Below are positions 3,685 through 17,661 of a DNA stretch of 17,711 nt, piece after piece. The translations under genes were made by a program, and so were the position numbers. Position 1 is the stretch's first letter, and every line of letters starts with the position of its first letter. The notes beneath the pieces are model-generated. The model did not search any database. It was not told the origin of the DNA and worked only from the letters and a program-made list of their open reading frames with translations. Source of the stretch: a virus; the UHGV virus genome UHGV-0089979; one strand, 5' to 3'.

Positions 3685-3871
3685 TGGTTTCCTCCTGAGC
3701 AGGTGCTGTTATCTGATACCCCGCTCTTTCTGCCAGCCATATGAATGTATCCATGCTGGCAATCAGCTCTCCATCGCGGACTTTGCAGACATCTGTTACC
3801 TGGCCATTTTCAATTGTCATAACGATCTGCACTTTTTCGTGTACAACAGATACAGGGGATAAATTAGCCAT
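3656..3871 (-). CDS. Hypothetical protein (71 aa)
   Basis: ATG at 3871 overlaps the stop of the upstream gene by 1 nt (TGATG); part of the coupled leftward operon. Confidence 0.45.
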   Translation of the reverse strand: MANLSPVSVVHEKVQIVMTIENGQVTDVCKVRDGELIASMDTFIWLAERAGYQITAPAQEETSDINSNTNS

Positions 3872-4230
3872 CAGTTAATTCCTCCGCTGATATATTTTTC
3901 TTTCGCGTAATCAATAACCTCTTGTAAAAGGTTGTCTATAATTAACTTTCCGGTTTCAGCCTGGTATTCAGTATGTTGATTAATCCCGATAGCATTCTGG
4001 TATGCAGTTCGGAATTCTGTTTCACCCTCCACTCGACCCAATTCACCACGGGTAATATCTTCAAAGCGCAACAGCAACTGGGTTATAAACTGTTCTGTTA
4101 TTTCTATGGTCGTAATGTTCCCATCCGGAAGGTCAACAATAAGCAGATCACCACCTGTTTTACGTTTTATTCGATGGAGTGCTGCAACAGCTATACGGCG
4201 ACGATATGTATTAATGGGTTCATGTGTCAT
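3871..4230 (-). CDS. Hypothetical protein (119 aa)
   Basis: ATG at 4230; first gene of a tightly packed leftward series (3077-4230). Confidence 0.55.
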   Translation of the reverse strand: MTHEPINTYRRRIAVAALHRIKRKTGGDLLIVDLPDGNITTIEITEQFITQLLLRFEDITRGELGRVEGETEFRTAYQNAIGINQHTEYQAETGKLIIDNLLQEVIDYAKEKYISGGIN

Positions 4231-4425
4231 TTGTTATTTCTCGTATGCTTTACGCAGAAATAAGCAGGCAATATGCATGTAATTTTCACCGTATTGTGCA
4301 ATAAGGCAGGCGGTCTTGTGTGATGCCATATTCTTTATAAAAGTCATAATAAAGCCTCCTGTGGATTAAGATTGTAACATTCCCCGGCGATAAAACTGCA
4401 ATAAACGTTCAGGGCATATTTATTG

Positions 4426-4791
4426 TTATTGCGCTAATTCTTTTTCGGCAGCAGTTTTTGCATACTCACATGCAAAATTCAGAATTTCGCTGCCGAGTGT
4501 TTTCGTTTCGTGATTACTGGACATATGTAATACCTGTGTTGCATGCAATAAATGATAAACATTTACCGCAAATGAATCAGGCTCCAGACAAATGCCTTCG
4601 TAATTATCTTGCTGTGAGGTTGTTTCTGTCATTGCTTCTGAAGTGCATGCGAGCCTGTTTTTGACAATTCTCTTTCCTCTAATCACTATATCGGCAACAT
4701 CTATTACCTTTACAACCTCCGGGAGAAGTTCCGGGTTTGTATAATCAAAGTCATCAACATGGAGAACAATTATGTTTTCGAACTTTTTCAT
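4426..4791 (-). CDS. Hypothetical protein (121 aa)
   Basis: ATG at 4791 preceded by GAGGAAG; divergent from the plus-strand ORF at 4971. Confidence 0.55.
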   Translation of the reverse strand: MKKFENIIVLHVDDFDYTNPELLPEVVKVIDVADIVIRGKRIVKNRLACTSEAMTETTSQQDNYEGICLEPDSFAVNVYHLLHATQVLHMSSNHETKTLGSEILNFACEYAKTAAEKELAQ

Positions 4792-10074: not shown

Positions 10075-10965
10075 ATGTTTGAACAGTTAAAAAAACACTA
10101 CGCACAACACGACAAAGCGCAATTGCTCAACCGCAGGGCGGAACTGGAGGAGGAGATGCAGTTTGCCCGTGCCGGGAAGCGCCCGTGGCGCTGTGAACAC
10201 TGGCTGACAAGCGAGGAAACTGCTGAGTGTGAGAAACACGGGAAATACGCACGTCTGGTGTTGAAAGGGCCTGATGTTCGTGGGGAAACCATCAAACGGG
10301 TTTCTGGTTGCCCGACCTGCATTGCGAATGAACTGGATCAGGTACAGGAGGCGTTACGCATCCTGAAAGTTCATGAATTACTCGACAGGGCTGGTATTGC
10401 CCGCCGCTTCCAGAACTGCGAGTTTGAGAATTATCAGGCGGTGAATGCTGACGCACAGAGAAATCTTGAGGCTTGTCGGCGCTATGCCGGCTCATGGGAG
10501 AAGTGTCTTGCTGCGGGTACCAGCATGATCATGATTGGCAATTGCGGTACCGGGAAAAATCACCTAGCTGTATCAATGGCAAAAAATATTATTCACCACC
10601 ACCTGGCGACTGTCGAAATTACGGATGTCATGCGACTGACCCGCGCTGTGAAAAATACCTGGCGTCACAATTCTGAACGCACTGAAGATGAAGTTATTGA
10701 CCATTTTGTATCGCTGGACCTGCTCATCATCGATGAGGTTGGTGTGCAGTTCGGTACGCCAACAGAGATAACCATCTTGCAGGAAATCATCAATGCACGT
10801 TACGAAAGCGTTTTACCGACAATTTTGATCAGCAATCTGACGTTTGACCAGCTTAAGGAGTCCATTGGTGAACGAATTGTGGATCGCGTTACTGATGGTG
10901 GGCGTAATTGCCTGGTGTTTGGTTGGGAAAGCTACCGTGTACATATCAGAGGTGTGGCAGCATGA
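10075..10965 (+). CDS. DnaC/IstB-like AAA+ helicase loader (296 aa)
   Basis: Walker A GNCGTGKNHLAVS and Walker B LLIIDEVG; N-terminal Cys cluster; immediately upstream of the DnaB-like helicase. Confidence 0.85.
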   Translation: MFEQLKKHYAQHDKAQLLNRRAELEEEMQFARAGKRPWRCEHWLTSEETAECEKHGKYARLVLKGPDVRGETIKRVSGCPTCIANELDQVQEALRILKVHELLDRAGIARRFQNCEFENYQAVNADAQRNLEACRRYAGSWEKCLAAGTSMIMIGNCGTGKNHLAVSMAKNIIHHHLATVEITDVMRLTRAVKNTWRHNSERTEDEVIDHFVSLDLLIIDEVGVQFGTPTEITILQEIINARYESVLPTILISNLTFDQLKESIGERIVDRVTDGGRNCLVFGWESYRVHIRGVAA

Positions 10966-12362
10966 CAAACCAGACAAATCCGGCGTGGCGTAATGATGAC
11001 CTGGAAGGCGCTGTCATTGGTGCGTTTTTTCTGCGAGGGGCAGATCATGAAGTGATGGATATTCTGGCCACGCTTCCGGCGGATGTCTTTTTCGTGCGTC
11101 AGTACAGGGATATTTACGCGGGGATTTGCAGACAGGCCCGCGTATCCGGCGTCATTGACCCCGTGCTGCTGTGCAATGAGATGCCGGAACTTGCCCCGGT
11201 GATTACAGACACCGGGCGTAAAACCTGGGTGAAGTCTTCACTGGAGCACTATGTTGCAGCCTTGCGTCGCAATGCCGCACTGCGTGATGCAGAAAAGACG
11301 CTGAATGAGGCGTTGCAGAAATTACGTGATGCGCATACCTGTGAAGCAGCTGAAGATGCCCTGAAGGATGCGCAGAAAATGATGGCCTCATTGTCGACGG
11401 AAAAGGGCGTTATTCAGCCTGTTCACATTGATGATGTACTTCCGGAAGTGGTCGACCGTGTTGAATGCCGGAATCAGGGACTGGAGAAATCCAGAACGCT
11501 GATGACCGGTATTGATGAACTGGACGCAAAAACAGGCGGCATGGAGCCCGGCGACCTGGTATTTATTGCGGCTCGTCCGTCAATGGGCAAAACCGAACTG
11601 GCGCTGGACATCATCGACAAGGTGACTGAGCAGGGGCATGGCGTGCTTCTGTTCACCATGGAGATGGCGAACATCCAGATTGGTGAACGTATGGTGTCTG
11701 CTGCCGGTGGAATGCCGGTATCCCGTCTTAAGTCTGTTGCCCGTTTTGAAGACGAAGACTGGGCACGCTTCTCACAGGGTGTGGGACGAATGACGGGGCG
11801 TAATATCTGGATGGTGGACCAGGCAAACCTGACCATTGATGAGATATGTGCAACCACGAAGCACCACCGGATGAAACATCCGGAAACGGCGCTGGTGGTG
11901 GTCGATTACCTCGGCCTGATTAAAACCCGCAGCACGGGGCGTCACGACCTTGCGGTGGGGGAAATCTCAAAGGGACTTAAAAGCCTGGCAAAATCCGGCG
12001 GTTTTCCGCTGATTGCTCTGAGCCAGCTCTCCCGCGGCGTGGAATCCAGACCCAATAAACGCCCCATGAACTCGGACCTGAAAAACTCCGGGGAAATCGA
12101 GGCGGATGCCGACATCATTCTGATGCTTTACAGGGATGAGGTATACAACCCGGAAACGCAGGCCGGAGGCATAGCAGAAATCAACATCACGAAACAGCGT
12201 AATGGCACGCTCGGGACCATTTACCGGCGTTTTCATAACGGACATTTTCTGCCTGTGGATCAGGAAAGCGCACAGATTCTTTCCACCCCAATGCAGCAGC
12301 CTCAGCCGCGCAGATACAGCAACAAACGAACTGACAGCAGTAAGATGGAGCGTTTCTTTTGA
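10962..12362 (+). CDS. Replicative DNA helicase, DnaB family (466 aa from the ATG at 10962)
   Basis: Walker A ARPSMGKTELAL, DnaB-like C-terminal motifs (ALSQLSRGVESR, ADADIILMLYRDEVY). The ATG at 10962 overlaps the upstream stop and follows GAGGTG; the track start at 10908 is less likely. Confidence 0.9.
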   Translation: MTNQTNPAWRNDDLEGAVIGAFFLRGADHEVMDILATLPADVFFVRQYRDIYAGICRQARVSGVIDPVLLCNEMPELAPVITDTGRKTWVKSSLEHYVAALRRNAALRDAEKTLNEALQKLRDAHTCEAAEDALKDAQKMMASLSTEKGVIQPVHIDDVLPEVVDRVECRNQGLEKSRTLMTGIDELDAKTGGMEPGDLVFIAARPSMGKTELALDIIDKVTEQGHGVLLFTMEMANIQIGERMVSAAGGMPVSRLKSVARFEDEDWARFSQGVGRMTGRNIWMVDQANLTIDEICATTKHHRMKHPETALVVVDYLGLIKTRSTGRHDLAVGEISKGLKSLAKSGGFPLIALSQLSRGVESRPNKRPMNSDLKNSGEIEADADIILMLYRDEVYNPETQAGGIAEINITKQRNGTLGTIYRRFHNGHFLPVDQESAQILSTPMQQPQPRRYSNKRTDSSKMERFF

Positions 12363-12373
12363 ACAACCAGACA

Positions 12374-12616
12374 ATGACTTTTACCCCTGAACAATTACGT
12401 AAACAGGCACAGGAAATGTTGCGACAGGCGGAACAACTGGAAAAAACAGGTGTAACAAAAGATGCCATTCGTCGGGATATGGTGCCAGCGCTCAGGGAAC
12501 TGATGCAGGCAAAACATCGCGCACAAAAAGCAGTGGATGAGCTGGTGGACTGTGTGGCAGAGCTGGAAACCAAAGTTGGAAAGTTTGAAAAACTGGTGCA
12601 GGAGGTACTGCGCTGA
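12374..12616 (+). CDS. Hypothetical small coiled-coil protein (80 aa)
   Basis: ATG at 12374 (the track start at 12359 is a TTG overlapping the helicase stop); its stop overlaps the Q-like start. Confidence 0.5.
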   Translation: MTFTPEQLRKQAQEMLRQAEQLEKTGVTKDAIRRDMVPALRELMQAKHRAQKAVDELVDCVAELETKVGKFEKLVQEVLR

Positions 12617-12963: not shown

Positions 12964-12993
12964 AAACAGCCTTGGTCCAGATAATAAAACTTA

Positions 12994-13659
12994 TTATTTT
13001 CTGGACTTTGCTGTTCTCGCACTTTTGTCTTTAGGTGCAAATCCCAATATTACAGCGAAATGTCTTACTTTGTATGGTAATCCAGATTTAGGGTGTTTGT
13101 GGCTAGAGTAAAAGCTCAACTTTTCTCTTGTTTTGCAATCGGATAAATAAAAATCTTCAAAGTCATCTTTTTTAGAGGTTAATGTTTTTTTCCATTTCTC
13201 TACGACATCTAATGCATTGTTGCTTTTCACATAAATTATTAATCCTCCTTGACAATCATCTTCACTTCCTGTGGAGTAACGAGAGCATAATTGATGGAAT
13301 CCTTCCATTAAATAGTCGTATGAGCTATGAATTTTAGCCTCTCCAATCCATGTGTAGTTTTTGAAACTTACAACAATGTCTGAGTGCCCATTTATATAAT
13401 TATCATGACCAGAATCATATCCGAAGCCAATTAGTATATTAATTATTTCTATAGATAAACGGTCTTCTCCATCGTTTTGCATTAAGCTTGCATTTTTTTC
13501 AATCAATCTGATTGTTTTTTCTAAGTCAATATAAAACATTTCAATAAATTTATCGTATGAATTGCATGTAATTCTTCGATAAAGGCGTGCTGCGCTCTCA
13601 TCGAATGACGCTGCGAACTTCAGCGATTCTAACGTAAAATTATTCTGATTATCCATCAT
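12994..13659 (-). CDS. Cassette gene C: hypothetical protein (221 aa from the ATG at 13659) with a PD-(D/E)xK nuclease-like signature
   Basis: The ATG at 13659 overlaps the TGA of gene B (ATGA). Motif string GHSDIVVSF...TWIGEAKIH...HQLCSRY fits the D...ExK core. AT-rich coding sequence. Confidence 0.6.
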   Translation of the reverse strand: MMDNQNNFTLESLKFAASFDESAARLYRRITCNSYDKFIEMFYIDLEKTIRLIEKNASLMQNDGEDRLSIEIINILIGFGYDSGHDNYINGHSDIVVSFKNYTWIGEAKIHSSYDYLMEGFHQLCSRYSTGSEDDCQGGLIIYVKSNNALDVVEKWKKTLTSKKDDFEDFYLSDCKTREKLSFYSSHKHPKSGLPYKVRHFAVILGFAPKDKSARTAKSRK

Positions 13660-14048
13660 TCTAGGCCTTTCCAGAACTCTGATGCATAAAAGTAAATGTA
13701 AACTTTCGACTGCCAATTGAGGACTGGTTTGCCATCGAAATAGAATGTTCCTTCTGAATATATTTTGCTTAACTCATCTTGAGAGATTTCAAAAATGTCA
13801 TCACCATCAATATATTCGTATCCGATTGATAATATTGGTGCTTTTTCTCCAGATAGATAAGTAATTGCCTCGTAAAGGATACTTTGATCAACATTACTGA
13901 CTTTTTGCAAGTTATTGAATGTTATATATTTTAAATTATCCAGATCTTCATTAAGCAGGTAATGATAAATATTCATACATGCAAAACCAACTTTGCTGTC
14001 GGTAGCAAAAGAATGTTGTATGATATCTTTCATTTCCTGCTTATTCAT
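13656..14048 (-). CDS. Cassette gene B: hypothetical protein (130 aa)
   Basis: ATG at 14048 directly follows the TAA of gene A (TAAATG); AT-rich; no recognisable motif. Confidence 0.65.
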   Translation of the reverse strand: MNKQEMKDIIQHSFATDSKVGFACMNIYHYLLNEDLDNLKYITFNNLQKVSNVDQSILYEAITYLSGEKAPILSIGYEYIDGDDIFEISQDELSKIYSEGTFYFDGKPVLNWQSKVYIYFYASEFWKGLE

Positions 14049-15101
14049 TTAGAAAACCTTTGACATCAATAACTCATAATCTGATTTACAAACACACCCT
14101 TCGATTATAACATGATTTATAAATGGTAGCGAGGATGAAATTAAAGAAAAATGTCCGGGTACATGCATTGTTAAAATATTATTGTGTGCTCCATTCCATT
14201 GTTTAGAAATACTAAAGTTATTAGTTTTCCCTCCAATTGCCGCTAAGCCTGCGGCATGATATTTTTCCTTCCTTAAATCATCTTTTCTCTTTCTCATTTT
14301 TTCTTCTTTTACTGAGCCTGTTCCTGTGGCATGCCCAAGTTTTAAAATGGTACCATCGGCAGATTTGTAAAGTTTATCGATAGCAGTAAATATATTTTTT
14401 CTAATGAAGGCGACGTGATATGAATTCTCTTTATGGAAAAGGTACATTAATATTCTGCGATATCTTGTTGATGCGCGCTCCAATTCATTGTGGTTAAGAT
14501 TTGTACACATGTCGATTTCAAATGTTATTTCGCCGGAAACATAGTTAAAAGTAATTGTGTCAAAACATTGGATGTATCTATCTTTTATTCCAATTATTTC
14601 ATCAAAACAATTGAGTTCTTTTTGTGTTGCTGGGCTTAGTGTATTTGTTTCAATTGCACTTCTTTCTTTGAATGGACGAAGATAAGTTGTTGTAATAGTG
14701 ATCGAGTTACCATGTTGAGAGTGGGAGATGCAGACTGGTCTTAATTTTTTGACTTTTTTATGTGTTGCGCTATCTATTGGCAATGGGTAGGTGGCAATGT
14801 ATTCTTGATAATCTTTATCGTTGCTGTTAATCAGATTTAACAAGGTTTTTTTCAAGAGGATTGCGTCAGTGATATTATTCAGTTGAGCAAAAAATACGGC
14901 CCGATTGCTGTAATTCAATTGGCTGAGGTAAATCTCCTTGAGATTATTTATTATATCCTTTTCATTATTACTTGCATAATCAGATAGCAACTCTGTCCAC
15001 CCCCTAGCTGACTTCATATTAAAATACTTTAATTCGCCTTGAAGAAGCCTGAAAGAGATGTTTCTTGCCTGAAGACCAAACAGGTAGTCGTTCGCTTTCA
15101 C
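14049..15101 (-). CDS. Cassette gene A: hypothetical protein (350 aa, GTG start)
   Basis: First gene of the AT-rich leftward operon. The GTG at 15101 is preceded by AAAGG and an in-frame TAA two codons upstream; the first in-frame ATG is at residue 29. No family recognised. Confidence 0.65.
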   Translation of the reverse strand: MKANDYLFGLQARNISFRLLQGELKYFNMKSARGWTELLSDYASNNEKDIINNLKEIYLSQLNYSNRAVFFAQLNNITDAILLKKTLLNLINSNDKDYQEYIATYPLPIDSATHKKVKKLRPVCISHSQHGNSITITTTYLRPFKERSAIETNTLSPATQKELNCFDEIIGIKDRYIQCFDTITFNYVSGEITFEIDMCTNLNHNELERASTRYRRILMYLFHKENSYHVAFIRKNIFTAIDKLYKSADGTILKLGHATGTGSVKEEKMRKRKDDLRKEKYHAAGLAAIGGKTNNFSISKQWNGAHNNILTMHVPGHFSLISSSLPFINHVIIEGCVCKSDYELLMSKVF

Positions 15102-15140
15102 TAGTCGTTACCTTTTACCTTTAGAATTAGAGAAAAGTTA

Positions 15141-15169
15141 AATATACAAAAGAGCTAACGCGTACGCAA
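15141..15169 (-). promoter_or_regulatory. Candidate sigma-70 promoter for the leftward cassette (-35 TTGCGT, 17-nt spacer, -10 TATATT)
   Basis: On the minus strand TATATT lies at 15146-15141 and TTGCGT at 15169-15164 with 17 nt between; the -35 is weak. Confidence 0.3.
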
Positions 15170-15217
15170 AAGTTATTGTAATGTGTTAAGAGTGGTTACT
15201 TTGCCACACAGCTTAAA

Positions 15218-15240
15218 CCCGCGCTGAGCGGTTTTTTTTT
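15218..15240 (+). terminator. Terminator-like element on the plus strand (short GC stem CCGC-gctga-GCGG followed by nine T)
   Basis: Stem 15219-15222 pairs with 15228-15231, followed by T9 at 15232-15240. The stem is short, so strength is uncertain. Confidence 0.45.
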
Positions 15241-15363
15241 GTGCCCGGAAAGCGGCACAGAACATTAAACGCGCTGGTAGTTGTGAATACTGGTCTTTCA
15301 GCTTGCTGGCTTTTTGGACAAGAGTTATTGGTATGTCACGTTAACCGGAAAAGGGAAAAAGGC

Positions 15364-15561
15364 ATGCTAAAACAGCAGGATATGACCGAAACCGCCAGAG
15401 TGGTGTTTAATGAATTAAGCGTCACCGAACCGGCGACCGTCGGGGAAATTGCGCAGAATACTTACCTTTCACGCGAACGCTGCCAGTTAATACTGACTCA
15501 GCTTGTTATGGCGGGTCTGGCAGATTATCAGTTCGGTTGTTACAGACGCCTTCCGCAGTGA
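15364..15561 (+). CDS. Small hypothetical protein (65 aa), winged-helix-like
   Basis: Track ORF 15241-15561 trimmed to the ATG at 15364 (preceded by AAGGGAAAAAGG). The segment EPATVGEIAQNTYLSRERCQLILTQLVMAGLADY looks like a wHTH recognition region. Followed by a strong terminator. Confidence 0.5.
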   Translation: MLKQQDMTETARVVFNELSVTEPATVGEIAQNTYLSRERCQLILTQLVMAGLADYQFGCYRRLPQ

Positions 15562-15570
15562 AGGCTTTTT
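15548..15570 (+). terminator. Rho-independent terminator (GCCTTC-cgcagt-GAAGGC followed by TTTTT) overlapping the stop codon of the small wHTH gene
   Basis: Seen directly: 6-bp perfect stem at 15548-15553 and 15560-15565, then a T5 tract at 15566-15570. Confidence 0.6.
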
Positions 15571-15711
15571 AATTTGTGGTAATGGGCGGCTGGTGGGTGT
15601 TAGCGGCACCTGCCAGCCATCTGCTCATGCGTTGGGGTCACAAGCAAACCTCAGGCCCATCTGCTTTGCGCAAAAGCGGTATGAGCCTATCAGAGAAGTG
15701 CTTATTGATCT

Positions 15712-16761
15712 ATGATTAATACTGTAAAAATATCCAGTTGTGAGTTAATCAACGCTGATTGCCTGGAGTTTATCCAGACCTTACCGGAAAACTCTGTCGA
15801 TCTGATAGTCACAGACCCGCCATACTTTAAAGTGAAGCCCGAGGGCTGGGATAACCAGTGGGAGGGCGACGATGATTACCTGAAATGGCTGGACCAGTGT
15901 CTGGCGCAGTTCTGGCGGGTACTGAAGCCTGCCGGAAGTCTTTACCTGTTCTGTGGTCATCGCCTGGCATCTGACACCGAAATCATGATGCGTGAGCGCT
16001 TTAATGTGCTGAACCACATTATCTGGGCGAAGCCGTCCGGACGCTGGAACGGGTGCAATAAGGAAAGTCTGCGGGCGTATTTTCCGGCAACAGAGCGCAT
16101 TCTGTTTGCAGAACATTATCAGGGACCGTATCGCCCGAAAGATGATGGCTATGTGGAGCAGGGGCGCGAGCTAAAACAGCACGTCATGGCCCCGCTGATT
16201 TCTTACTTTCGTGATGCGCGTAAATCACTGGGAATAACGTCAAAACAGATAGCGGAAGCCACCGGAAAGAAAAACATGGCTTCGCACTGGTTTGGTGCCA
16301 GTCAGTGGCAGTTACCGAACGAGGGTGATTACAATAAATTGCAGGCGTTGTTTGCGCGTGTTGCGGCAGAAAAACATCAGCGCGGGGAACTGGAAAAGCC
16401 ACACCACCAGCTGGTCAGCACATACAGTGAGCTGAACCGGCAGTATACGGAACTGCTGAGTGAATATAAAAATTTGCGGCGGTATTTCGGTGTGACGGCG
16501 CAGGTTCCGTACACCGATGTCTGGACGCATAAACCGGTGCAGTACTATCCAGGGAAACATCCGTGCGAAAAACCGGCAGAAATGCTGCAGCAGATAATCA
16601 ACGCGAGCAGTCGTCCGGGAGACCTGGTTGCAGATTTTTTTATGGGTTCAGGTTCAACGGTAAAAGCGGCGATGGCACTGGGGCGTTGTGCGATTGGTGT
16701 TGAGCTGGAGACCGGACGTTTTGAACAGACAGTCAGGGAAGTTCAGGATTTAATCGTTTGA
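15712..16761 (+). CDS. DNA methyltransferase, beta-class (N6-adenine or N4-cytosine), 349 aa
   Basis: N-terminal DPPY motif (VDLIVTDPPYF) and C-terminal AdoMet-binding motif (DLVADFFMGSGST), the circularly permuted order of beta-class amino-methyltransferases such as YhdJ. Confidence 0.85.
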   Translation: MINTVKISSCELINADCLEFIQTLPENSVDLIVTDPPYFKVKPEGWDNQWEGDDDYLKWLDQCLAQFWRVLKPAGSLYLFCGHRLASDTEIMMRERFNVLNHIIWAKPSGRWNGCNKESLRAYFPATERILFAEHYQGPYRPKDDGYVEQGRELKQHVMAPLISYFRDARKSLGITSKQIAEATGKKNMASHWFGASQWQLPNEGDYNKLQALFARVAAEKHQRGELEKPHHQLVSTYSELNRQYTELLSEYKNLRRYFGVTAQVPYTDVWTHKPVQYYPGKHPCEKPAEMLQQIINASSRPGDLVADFFMGSGSTVKAAMALGRCAIGVELETGRFEQTVREVQDLIV

Positions 16762-16810: not shown

Positions 16811-16886
16811 GGCCCTTTAGCTCAGTGGTGAGAGCGAGCGACTCATAATCGCCAGGTCGCTGGTTCAAATCCAGCAAGGGCCACCA
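16811..16886 (+). tRNA. tRNA with anticodon CAT, 76 nt including CCA; closely resembles E. coli tRNA-Ile2 (ileX-type, read as Ile after lysidine modification)
   Basis: Cloverleaf built by hand: acceptor stem GGCCCTT/AAGGGCC, anticodon loop CTCATAA (CAT at 16844-16846), T-arm GGTTCAAATCC, 3' CCA. Search tools would probably call it Met. Confidence 0.85.
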
Positions 16887-16893
16887 TCACATA

Positions 16894-16970
16894 CCGCCAT
16901 TAGCTCATCAGGATAGAGCGCCAGCCTTCGAAGCTGGTTGCGCGGGGTTCGAGTCCTCGATGGCGGTCCA
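16894..16970 (+). tRNA. tRNA-Arg, anticodon TCG, 77 nt including CCA
   Basis: Acceptor stem CCGCCAT/ATGGCGG, anticodon stem CCAGC/GCTGG with loop CTTCGAA (TCG at 16928-16930), T-arm CGGGGTTCGAGTCCTCG, 3' CCA. Confidence 0.8.
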
Positions 16971-16983
16971 TTATCTGTACCCT

Positions 16984-17060
16984 GCGTTGTTAGCTCAGCC
17001 GGACAGAGCAATTGCCTTCTAAGCAATCGGTCACTGGTTCGAATCCAGTACAACGCGCCA
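16984..17060 (+). tRNA. tRNA-Arg, anticodon TCT (reads AGA), 77 nt including CCA
   Basis: Acceptor stem GCGTTGT/ACAACGC, anticodon stem ATTGC/GCAAT with loop CTTCTAA (TCT at 17018-17020), T-arm TGGTTCGAATCCAGT, 3' CCA. Confidence 0.85.
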
Positions 17061-17074
17061 CGCTTATTTTTCCA

Positions 17075-17097
17075 GGCTCGCTTCGGCGGGCCTTTTT
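17075..17097 (+). terminator. Rho-independent terminator after the tRNA cluster (GGCTCGC-ttcg-GCGGGCC followed by TTTTT)
   Basis: 7-bp stem with one G-U pair, a TTCG tetraloop and a T5 tract, 15 nt after the last tRNA. Confidence 0.65.
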
Positions 17098-17235: not shown

Positions 17236-17661
17236 ATGTTTGGTATTTTCAAAAAGAAAACCCGCAAGGCCATTACCGAAGTGAAGAAGATGGAGAACCG
17301 TGACGCAGTGGAGGCGACCGTCTGGGGCGCGTACTCCATTGCATACGCTGACGGCACCTGTGACGCGAAAGAAATCGCGGTACTGGAAAAAACCATTGCA
17401 GCACTTCCTGTCTTTGCGCCGTTCTCCGGTGAGATTGCACAAATGAGTGCAAATATCCGCGCCCGTTATGAAGCGTCGCCGCGTTCTGCCAATGCCGAAG
17501 CTCTTCGTCAGCTGGCTGATGTTGCCGGTACTGATGATGCAGTTAATGTGCTGTGCCTGTGTCTGGATATCGCTGACCAGGACGGTATCGCTCAGGAAGA
17601 AGAAGCGCAACTGAAGAAAATTGCGCAGGCGCTGCAGTTGCCGCTGGAGCAGTACCTGTGA
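17236..17661 (+). CDS. TerB-like (tellurite-resistance TerB domain) protein, 141 aa
   Basis: ATG at 17236 preceded by AAAGGAAAAG. Two-part pattern (WGAYSIAYADGTCDAKEIAVLEK...; LCLCLDIADQDGIAQEEEAQLKKIAQALQL) matches the TerB fold signature from memory. Confidence 0.55.
   Translation: MFGIFKKKTRKAITEVKKMENRDAVEATVWGAYSIAYADGTCDAKEIAVLEKTIAALPVFAPFSGEIAQMSANIRARYEASPRSANAEALRQLADVAGTDDAVNVLCLCLDIADQDGIAQEEEAQLKKIAQALQLPLEQYL

Follow-up and report, generated by a model that had tools for sequence, protein, structure and literature searches.

Is the DNA methyltransferase in the 17,711-nt viral genome UHGV-0089979 an orphan, or does it form one half of a restriction-like system? We refer to this whole stretch of DNA as the window. 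It encodes a beta-class N6-adenine methyltransferase (the methylase) and, on the opposite strand, a three-gene cassette (genes A, B and C) whose last gene encodes a presumed nuclease. A 65-aa open reading frame (ORF) with a putative winged helix (wHTH) lies between them. An earlier note on the sequence alone had raised the question of whether the methylase protects its own DNA from the cassette nuclease, and we found all genes it described at the positions it gave. Escherichia coli E200139 (NZ_CM128604.1) has a lambdoid prophage that matches the window with 100% identity. We conclude, with a probability of about 0.85, that two unrelated accessory modules lie side by side downstream of the antiterminator gene Q of an E. 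coli lambdoid prophage and have no obligatory functional link. The coordinates of all features are given in Table 1.

Methylase and cassette are inherited independently

We compared the occurrence of the two modules across 5426 complete E. coli genomes. The segment comprising the wHTH gene and the methylase was found in 2580 of them (48%), with up to seven copies per genome. The cassette was found in 23 genomes and every copy was at least 99% identical. It adjoins the methylase in 17 of these. The other six, O145:H28 strains included, were examined locally and show Q, the cassette and stx1AB with no methylase at the locus. The cassette is also present in records of Stx1a-converting phages (n = 7), and a tblastn search of one of them, the complete 49.6-kb genome LC567819.1, turned up no homologue anywhere for either the methylase or the wHTH protein.

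Prophages of Enterobacter bugandensis and Raoultella ornithinolytica carry the three genes in the same slot, with identities of 63% for A, 44% for B and 66-68% for C. Here the triad converges on a Q gene of the PF06530 type, and holin and lysozyme genes come directly after it; the methylase, the wHTH gene and the tRNAs are absent from the examined prophage loci of both species. For a more diverse set of bacteria we scanned one genome per species with the motif of protein C. This yielded 80 loci in cyanobacteria, gamma-, beta- and alpha-proteobacteria and Bacteroidota; the enterobacterial copies are not among them and were recovered by a separate search. None of the 80 loci contained a homologue of the window methylase or wHTH protein within 10 kb, and a DNA-methylase domain (N6_Mtase) was encoded by 2 of the 115 immediate neighbours of the triad.

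The alignments of related prophages also reveal where the two modules were joined. Q and the cassette are at least 99.6% identical, and the segment 15102-15240 is 94-99% identical, in L002 (a Stx1 phage with the cassette only), L005 and L093, so that these parts move as a unit. In L005 the cassette is 99.7% identical to that of the window, the adjoining methylase is 89.5% identical and the tRNAs have been replaced by others (Thr, Gly). The methylase-only prophage L003 shows the opposite picture: methylase, tRNAs and TerB-family gene are 99.8-100% identical (tRNAs 100%), whereas Q belongs to another type (DUF1133) and the cassette is missing. Homology to L003 starts at 15216 and homology to L002 stops at 15250. 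A recombination junction at 15216-15250 thus separates Q, the cassette and the late-promoter region from the wHTH gene, the methylase and the tRNAs. The wHTH leader has been joined to many types of late promoter: it is present in 1982 genomes, only 195 of which have at least 80% of 15102-15400.

The methylase and the cassette are inherited independently, and for this reason they are not a restriction-modification (R-M) pair. The earlier note had argued from composition that the cassette arrived on its own, and this view holds: its GC content is ∼33% compared to ∼50-52% (or ∼51%) in the flanks, and the mosaic junction points the same way. The idea of self-protection fared differently. The modules occur apart in both directions (2580 versus 23 genomes), and the comparison across genomes that the note had proposed returned cassettes without the methylase in the six E. 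coli genomes, the Stx1a phage, Enterobacter, Raoultella and 80 of 80 diverse loci. As separate occurrence is frequent both ways, a functional link is unsupported. To the question of orphan or restriction-like system, the data thus support the orphan and its independent arrival.

The methylase belongs to the M.EcoGII family

The methylase matches PF01555 (N6_N4_Mtase) in Pfam with an E-value of 2.3e-44 and the PADLOC model MTase_II with 1e-159. The DPPY motif (residues 35-38) precedes the FxGxG motif (FMGSG, residues 310-314), which is the order of the beta class and, together with the PF01555 match, bears out the class assigned in the earlier note. Its relatives in the PDB are RsrI, CcrM and MboIIA. 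We aligned the protein with the M.EcoGII sequence given in the supplement of PMC11551740 and found 317 of 350 residues identical (∼91%) over the full length, where some of the ∼9% differences are print errors as the reference text was machine-read with a few reading errors. It also shows 90% identity with the phage 1720a-02 methylase, which Murray et al. 2018 (PMC5778455) count among the close relatives of M.EcoGII. The methylase shares with M.EcoGII as well as M.EcoGI its length of 349 aa, the beta-class motif order and the PF01555 domain. It also shares with this family the location downstream of Q in a lambdoid prophage. Phage 1720a-02 is an example, where the order is Q, the same small ORF, the methylase and then stx2 (tRNA/stx). 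All sequence features that we tested were present, and by these the predicted enzyme is a member of the M.EcoGI/M.EcoGII family and an orthologue of the two.

M.EcoGI and M.EcoGII are 349-aa beta-class enzymes from prophages of E. coli O104:H4. They methylate adenine whatever the sequence context, are silent in the lysogen and do harm if their expression is constitutive; it was proposed that they are switched on at prophage induction (PMC5778455). As this behaviour is established for a relative of ∼91% identity, the window allele, which differs in ∼9% of its residues, would be expected to be non-specific and silent in the lysogen as well. An enzyme with these properties would be wrong for the role of a cognate modification enzyme. 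In line with the earlier note, there is no recognisable restriction endonuclease gene adjoining the methylase, and we found no other such gene beside it in the Pfam results or the RefSeq annotation.

Two further enzymes were considered and rejected as the identity of the methylase. M.EcoGIX is plasmid-borne. M.EcoPA8orf6770P, an rRNA methyltransferase of Stx prophages, belongs to another family (MT-A70, with a DPPW motif) and occupies another position in the prophage.

The small ORF is not of the controller type

The earlier note had likened the 65-aa wHTH protein to a controller protein because of its size. The ORF is there, on the strand of the methylase and inherited with the methylase module, and all 63 of 63 residues are identical in phage 1720a-02, where it also lies upstream of the methylase. 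Its winged-helix matches are below the Pfam cut-offs (TrmB, E = 0.0026; MarR_2, E = 0.036; HTH_24) and in PHROGs it belongs to phrog_331, a family of unknown function. The Pfam scan gave no HTH_3/XRE match, and none of the solved controller proteins in the PDB matched. Judged by its family, the predicted protein is not a controller (C) protein. Nor is the gene strictly tied to the methylase, since E. coli 25DN has it without one (L092:3501-3787), with a short DUF3927 gene directly after it.

There is a precedent for a small wHTH subunit beside a phage methylase: the MT-A70 methyltransferase of Stx prophages requires the upstream winged-helix subunit PNB-2, which redirects the enzyme to 16S rRNA (PMC10810198). 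We also note that M.EcoGII is active when cloned alone.

The cassette is a self-contained operon with a nuclease gene

Gene B overlaps gene C by 4 nt and abuts gene A. We give protein C a length of 221 aa, following RefSeq and its homologues; the listed 240-aa ORF begins further upstream. In the 80 diverse loci the full A-B-C order was present in 57, with junctions that mostly overlap by 1-11 nt or leave a gap of <10 nt, and in 57 loci a gene that is homologous to B or of equal size lies between A and C. No family is conserved among the 115 immediate neighbours. The most common ones are phage integrases (5) and Mo-nitro_C (5); other integrase domains (3) and resolvases (2) come next. The majority of triads are chromosomal, in cyanobacteria and proteobacteria, and have no conserved phage neighbours. 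The cassette is thus a tightly coupled, self-contained operon that occurs across bacterial phyla without a partner methylase.

Protein C is a member of the PD-(D/E)xK superfamily. Residues E65, D66, D94, E107-A-K109 and Q123 are invariant in 25 homologues, and the best fold matches are the Type IIP restriction enzymes BamHI, OkrAI, BstYI and BglII. The PD-(D/E)xK-like motif that the earlier note had seen in this gene is therefore genuine, with both invariant catalytic residues and a restriction-endonuclease-like fold. The nuclease domain also occurs outside the triad. At eight cyanobacterial loci (L037-L048) it forms the C-terminal ∼180 residues of proteins of 995-1205 aa, and all four fusion proteins that were scanned against Pfam combine an N-terminal NACHT/STAND NTPase with central HEAT repeats. 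Shorter fusions of HEAT repeats and the C domain (308-389 aa) were found in L025, L031 and L043. As the domain is reused in NACHT-HEAT proteins, it appears to act like an interchangeable immune effector, unlike a site-specific restriction enzyme that needs a methylase.

Protein A shows an RdgC-like fold and not the Rossmann fold of a methyltransferase. Its matches in BFVD include phage proteins annotated as RdgC or exonuclease, whereas by sequence it belongs neither to the RdgC family (PF04381) nor to the RexA family. Clustered at 50% identity, the signature protein A falls into 635 clusters. In the PDB, neither the profile of A nor that of B (48 sequences) had a significant match. For B we found no consistent Pfam family among its 48 homologues and detected no relative outside the triad.

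Scans of A, B and C against Pfam, NCBIfam and PADLOC returned no usable family, and PHROGs only families of unknown function. Among the known defence systems of PADLOC-DB v2.0.0 there was no match for A, and those for B (CARF3, E = 0.007) and C (PDC-S54, E = 0.01) were partial and weak. None of the three proteins showed a modification-reading domain (SRA, YTH, DpnI-like, McrB-N). A literature search by RefSeq protein accessions found no paper. In fold and logic the cassette can be likened to RexAB, the exclusion system of lambda, and to RdgC of E. coli (RdgC/RexA/IML3/CHL4 fold). With the antiviral STAND/NACHT NTPases of the Avs/bNACHT type it shares the C domain, which ends the cyanobacterial NACHT and HEAT proteins, but the window cassette has no NTPase and neither Avs nor any other PADLOC model matches C. 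KELShedu follows the same general logic of a DNA-binding partner and a PD-(D/E)xK effector. However, it is a DUF4263-based system of two genes with a 12.6-kDa WYL-like partner, and C has no DUF4263 and no Shedu match; we therefore rejected KELShedu as the identity of the cassette. The cassette resembles nuclease-effector defence systems and DNA binders of the RexA/RdgC type and is a member of no described family.

The cassette occupies the slot between Q and the presumed late promoter

The Q gene and the cassette are convergent, with 30 bp between the Q stop codon and the end of gene C. On the other side of the cassette, positions 15161-15240 are conserved at 79-83% in L004 (E. coli E94) and in phage 1720a-02, both of which have a related PF06530-type Q. 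In phage 1720a-02 the conserved late-promoter-like segment lies 16 bp past the Q stop codon. The segment 15102-15240 is missing from L003 with its other type of Q. A hairpin with a T-run occurs at the homologous position in the window, L002, L003 and L004. These comparisons suggest that 15102-15240 holds the Q-specific late promoter pR' and terminator tR', while its left ∼60 bp probably hold the divergent promoter and the leader of the cassette. The cassette would then be inserted between Q and its late-promoter element, and the wHTH gene, the methylase and the tRNAs would be the first cargo of the late transcript, which fits the published silence of M.EcoGII.

The stem of the presumed tR' has only 4 bp and is weaker than its counterpart at L003:4985-5007 (fold z = −6.2). 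The hairpin between the wHTH gene and the methylase has a 6-bp stem and a T-run, though its fold is no better than that of shuffled sequence. Because the terminator hairpins of the window are weak by energy, the assignment to a late operon relies mainly on comparative position. The late terminator of the window prophage may be leaky. A scan for consensus sigma-70 promoters gave no site for the cassette nor ahead of the methylase, which is uninformative either way.

The slot is not reserved for the cassette. In L004 a minus-strand ompC-like porin gene (3690-4787) occupies the equivalent of 12964-15160 and stands in place of the cassette, so the slot between Q and the late promoter swaps its cargo. 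The cassette is accompanied by a PF06530-type Q in all E. coli, Enterobacter and Raoultella copies (including L087-L091). In the Stx1a-converting phages of O145:H28 it is located ∼570 bp upstream of stx1A and runs on the other strand (L002:8177-9403; L093:16302-17528). The cassette thus shares its slot with the known Q-to-lysis morons of lambdoid phages, the stx genes and OmpC-like porins, as the porin of L004 and the position of the cassette directly upstream of stx1AB in O145:H28 illustrate, but the cargo is a three-gene nuclease operon and neither a toxin nor a porin. Since its insertion site separates Q from the late-promoter region linked to Q, it is inherited with Q. Cargo at this site may be hard to lose by recombination, as Q has to remain with its cognate site.

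The lysis and packaging genes lie beyond the window, in the E200139 prophage. The tRNAs after the methylase differ among otherwise similar prophages (Ile-Arg-Arg in the window, Thr-Gly in L005 and Ile-Arg in L004). The first tRNA of the window (16811-16886) is Met by ARAGORN, from its CAT anticodon, and tRNA-Ile by RefSeq. The TerB-family protein holds the position after the tRNAs where Stx phages have stx.

Table 1. Features of the window and examples of fusion proteins with the C domain. Positions refer to the window unless a locus is named.
Feature	Position	Strand	Evidence or remarks
Replicative helicase	10908-12362	+	
85-aa ORF	12359-12616	+	
Antiterminator Q gene, 115 aa	12616-12963	+	PF06530 Phage_antitermQ 6.9e-46; RefSeq 'antiterminator Q family protein'; inherited with the cassette at ≥99.7% identity in L002, L005 and L093
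Cassette gene C, 221 aa, presumed effector nuclease	12994-13659	−	BamHI-like PD-(D/E)xK fold
Cassette gene B, 130 aa	13656-14048	−	phrog_11490 (unknown function)
Cassette gene A, 350 aa, GTG start, presumed DNA-binding component	14049-15101	−	RdgC-like fold
Intergenic region, 262 bp	15102-15363		
Q-linked intergenic segment, probable late promoter pR' and terminator	15102-15240	+	Comparative position
Mosaic junction (Q, cassette and pR' module / wHTH, methylase and tRNA module)	15216-15250		
Terminator-like hairpin CCGC-GCUGA-GCGG followed by T9, presumed tR'	15219-15240	+	
65-aa ORF, putative wHTH; first ORF past the presumed late promoter and terminator	15364-15561	+	
Second terminator-like hairpin, between wHTH gene and methylase	15548-15575	+	Consensus scan
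Beta-class N6-adenine DNA methyltransferase, 349 aa	15712-16761	+	DPPY codons 15814-15825; FxGxG codons 16639-16653
Three tRNAs (CAT anticodon, Arg-TCG, Arg-TCT)	16811-17060	+	ARAGORN and RefSeq
Terminator-like hairpin between tRNAs and TerB-family gene	17074-17093		
TerB-family gene	17236-17661	+	PF05099; phrog_632 'tellurite resistance'
Cyanobacterial C-domain fusions (examples)	L037:7313-10549; L048:5946-9380; L045:7568-10552; L041:6935-10549		

Proposed roles of the two modules and competing explanations

We propose the following mechanism for the two modules. The wHTH gene, the methylase and the tRNAs would be what E. coli lambdoid prophages commonly carry as the first cargo of their late operon, with the methylase transcribed only after induction, once Q permits RNA polymerase to read through the terminators. 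The enzyme would then broadly methylate the DNA of the phage progeny and thereby help it to escape restriction in the next host; it would be an orphan anti-restriction enzyme and not a protector of the lysogen chromosome. The low-GC cassette, inserted in the opposite orientation between Q and the late-promoter region, would be expressed from its own promoter in the lysogen and most likely represents a moron that forms a self-contained candidate module for defence. In our working model, to which we give about an even chance, it acts as an abortive-infection or exclusion system against other phages: the RdgC-like protein A would sense foreign or aberrant DNA, B would couple or restrain the response and the nuclease effector C would degrade DNA. 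More tentatively, A-B-C could be an undescribed anti-phage system found across phyla, in which a DNA binder of the RdgC fold and a small adaptor control a BamHI-like effector from the Q-to-promoter site, and the EcoGII-type methylase might give the carrier phage incidental escape.

Several points weigh against this interpretation. The six cassette-only E. coli genomes were viewed locally, and genomes of enterohaemorrhagic E. coli (EHEC) usually have several lambdoid prophages, another of which might carry the methylase. As 17 of 23 cassette copies adjoin the methylase, a non-obligatory benefit such as shielding of the phage DNA during induction may exist. Expression of the methylase as part of a late operon is deduced from position, weak terminator predictions and the literature on a relative of 91% identity. 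The arguments for a defence role come from fold, context and domain fusions; B has no assignable fold and the consensus scan gave no promoter for the cassette.

The locus does look like a Type II R-M system with a controller, such as BamHI or PvuII, and it is this likeness that suggests a methylase guarding its own DNA from nuclease C under the control of the 65-aa protein. There is a PD-(D/E)xK nuclease with a BamHI-like fold whose closest structural matches are Type IIP restriction enzymes, an adenine methylase, and a small DNA-binding-like ORF between them, and in 17 E. coli genomes the genes lie side by side in divergent orientation. However, co-inheritance defines such systems and here it fails: a mosaic junction runs between the modules, more than 2500 genomes have the methylase but no cassette, and the cassette does without the methylase in E. 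coli, Stx1a phages, Enterobacter, Raoultella and the 80 diverse loci. The constant partners of C are A and B and include no methylase, and the small ORF, a winged helix with weak likeness to TrmB/MarR, is not a controller of the HTH_3/XRE type and has no match to solved controllers. The closest characterised relative of the methylase is non-specific and lysogen-silent (PMC5778455), and the methylase would be phage-late by its position. An R-M pair is thus already largely refuted by co-occurrence and we consider it very improbable. A facultative form of the same idea would keep the modules independent and let the late, non-specific N6-methyladenine (m6A) shield the replicating DNA of the induced phage from C, so that the combination is favoured. 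Broad m6A blocks many PD-(D/E)xK enzymes, and the 17 of 23 cassettes that adjoin a methylase come from strains of varied hosts with methylase alleles that are 89.5-99.8% identical. Yet the methylase module is the most common cargo after the late promoter (48% of E. coli genomes), so that an adjacency of 74% among a few related prophages is not clearly above expectation, and the Stx1a phages and the Enterobacter and Raoultella prophages have the cassette without it. We regard such synergy as quite improbable.

Other explanations concern the cassette. It might serve the life cycle of the phage, with A as an RdgC-like modulator of RecA or recombination and C as a structure-specific nuclease in replication, recombination or the lysis-lysogeny decision. 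RdgC modulates RecA, RexA of the same fold class biases the lambda switch (PMC11077077) and thereby sets a precedent for a dual role, and the BFVD matches of A include phage RdgC and exonuclease annotations. This remains rather unlikely, as most triads reside in cyanobacterial and proteobacterial chromosomes with no conserved phage neighbours, the transcription of the prophage cassette runs counter to that of the phage operons and its GC content is foreign, and the C domain is reused in STAND proteins with the NACHT-HEAT architecture that is typical of immune sensors. It is hardly credible that the cassette is a modification-dependent (Type IV-like) nuclease directed at the hypermethylated DNA of rival lambdoid phages with EcoGII-type methylases. 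Together with such a methylase in 17 prophages it would destroy its own phage on induction, A, B and C lack detectable modification-reading domains, and the triad is widespread in taxa where no EcoGII-type methylase was found nearby. We therefore retain two unrelated modules, an orphan methylase and a candidate defence cassette, as the best explanation.

Implications

The question that this locus raised receives a clean negative. The methylase is an orphan of the characterised M.EcoGII family, and annotations should present neither this enzyme as one half of a restriction system nor the 65-aa ORF as a controller protein. To this extent the outcome is an ordinary one, a known orphan phage methylase beside an unrelated moron in a known variable region. 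For phage architecture it means that cargo between Q and its cognate late promoter passes on as one unit with Q. What remains of interest is the cassette, a candidate defence system that is still uncharacterised, occurs across phyla and is placed between Q and the promoter of Q, next to stx1 in EHEC phages. If its role in defence is true, the cassette would represent a new pairing of sensor and effector, an RdgC-like fold with a restriction-enzyme-like nuclease, and it could affect superinfection and the ecology of Stx phages.

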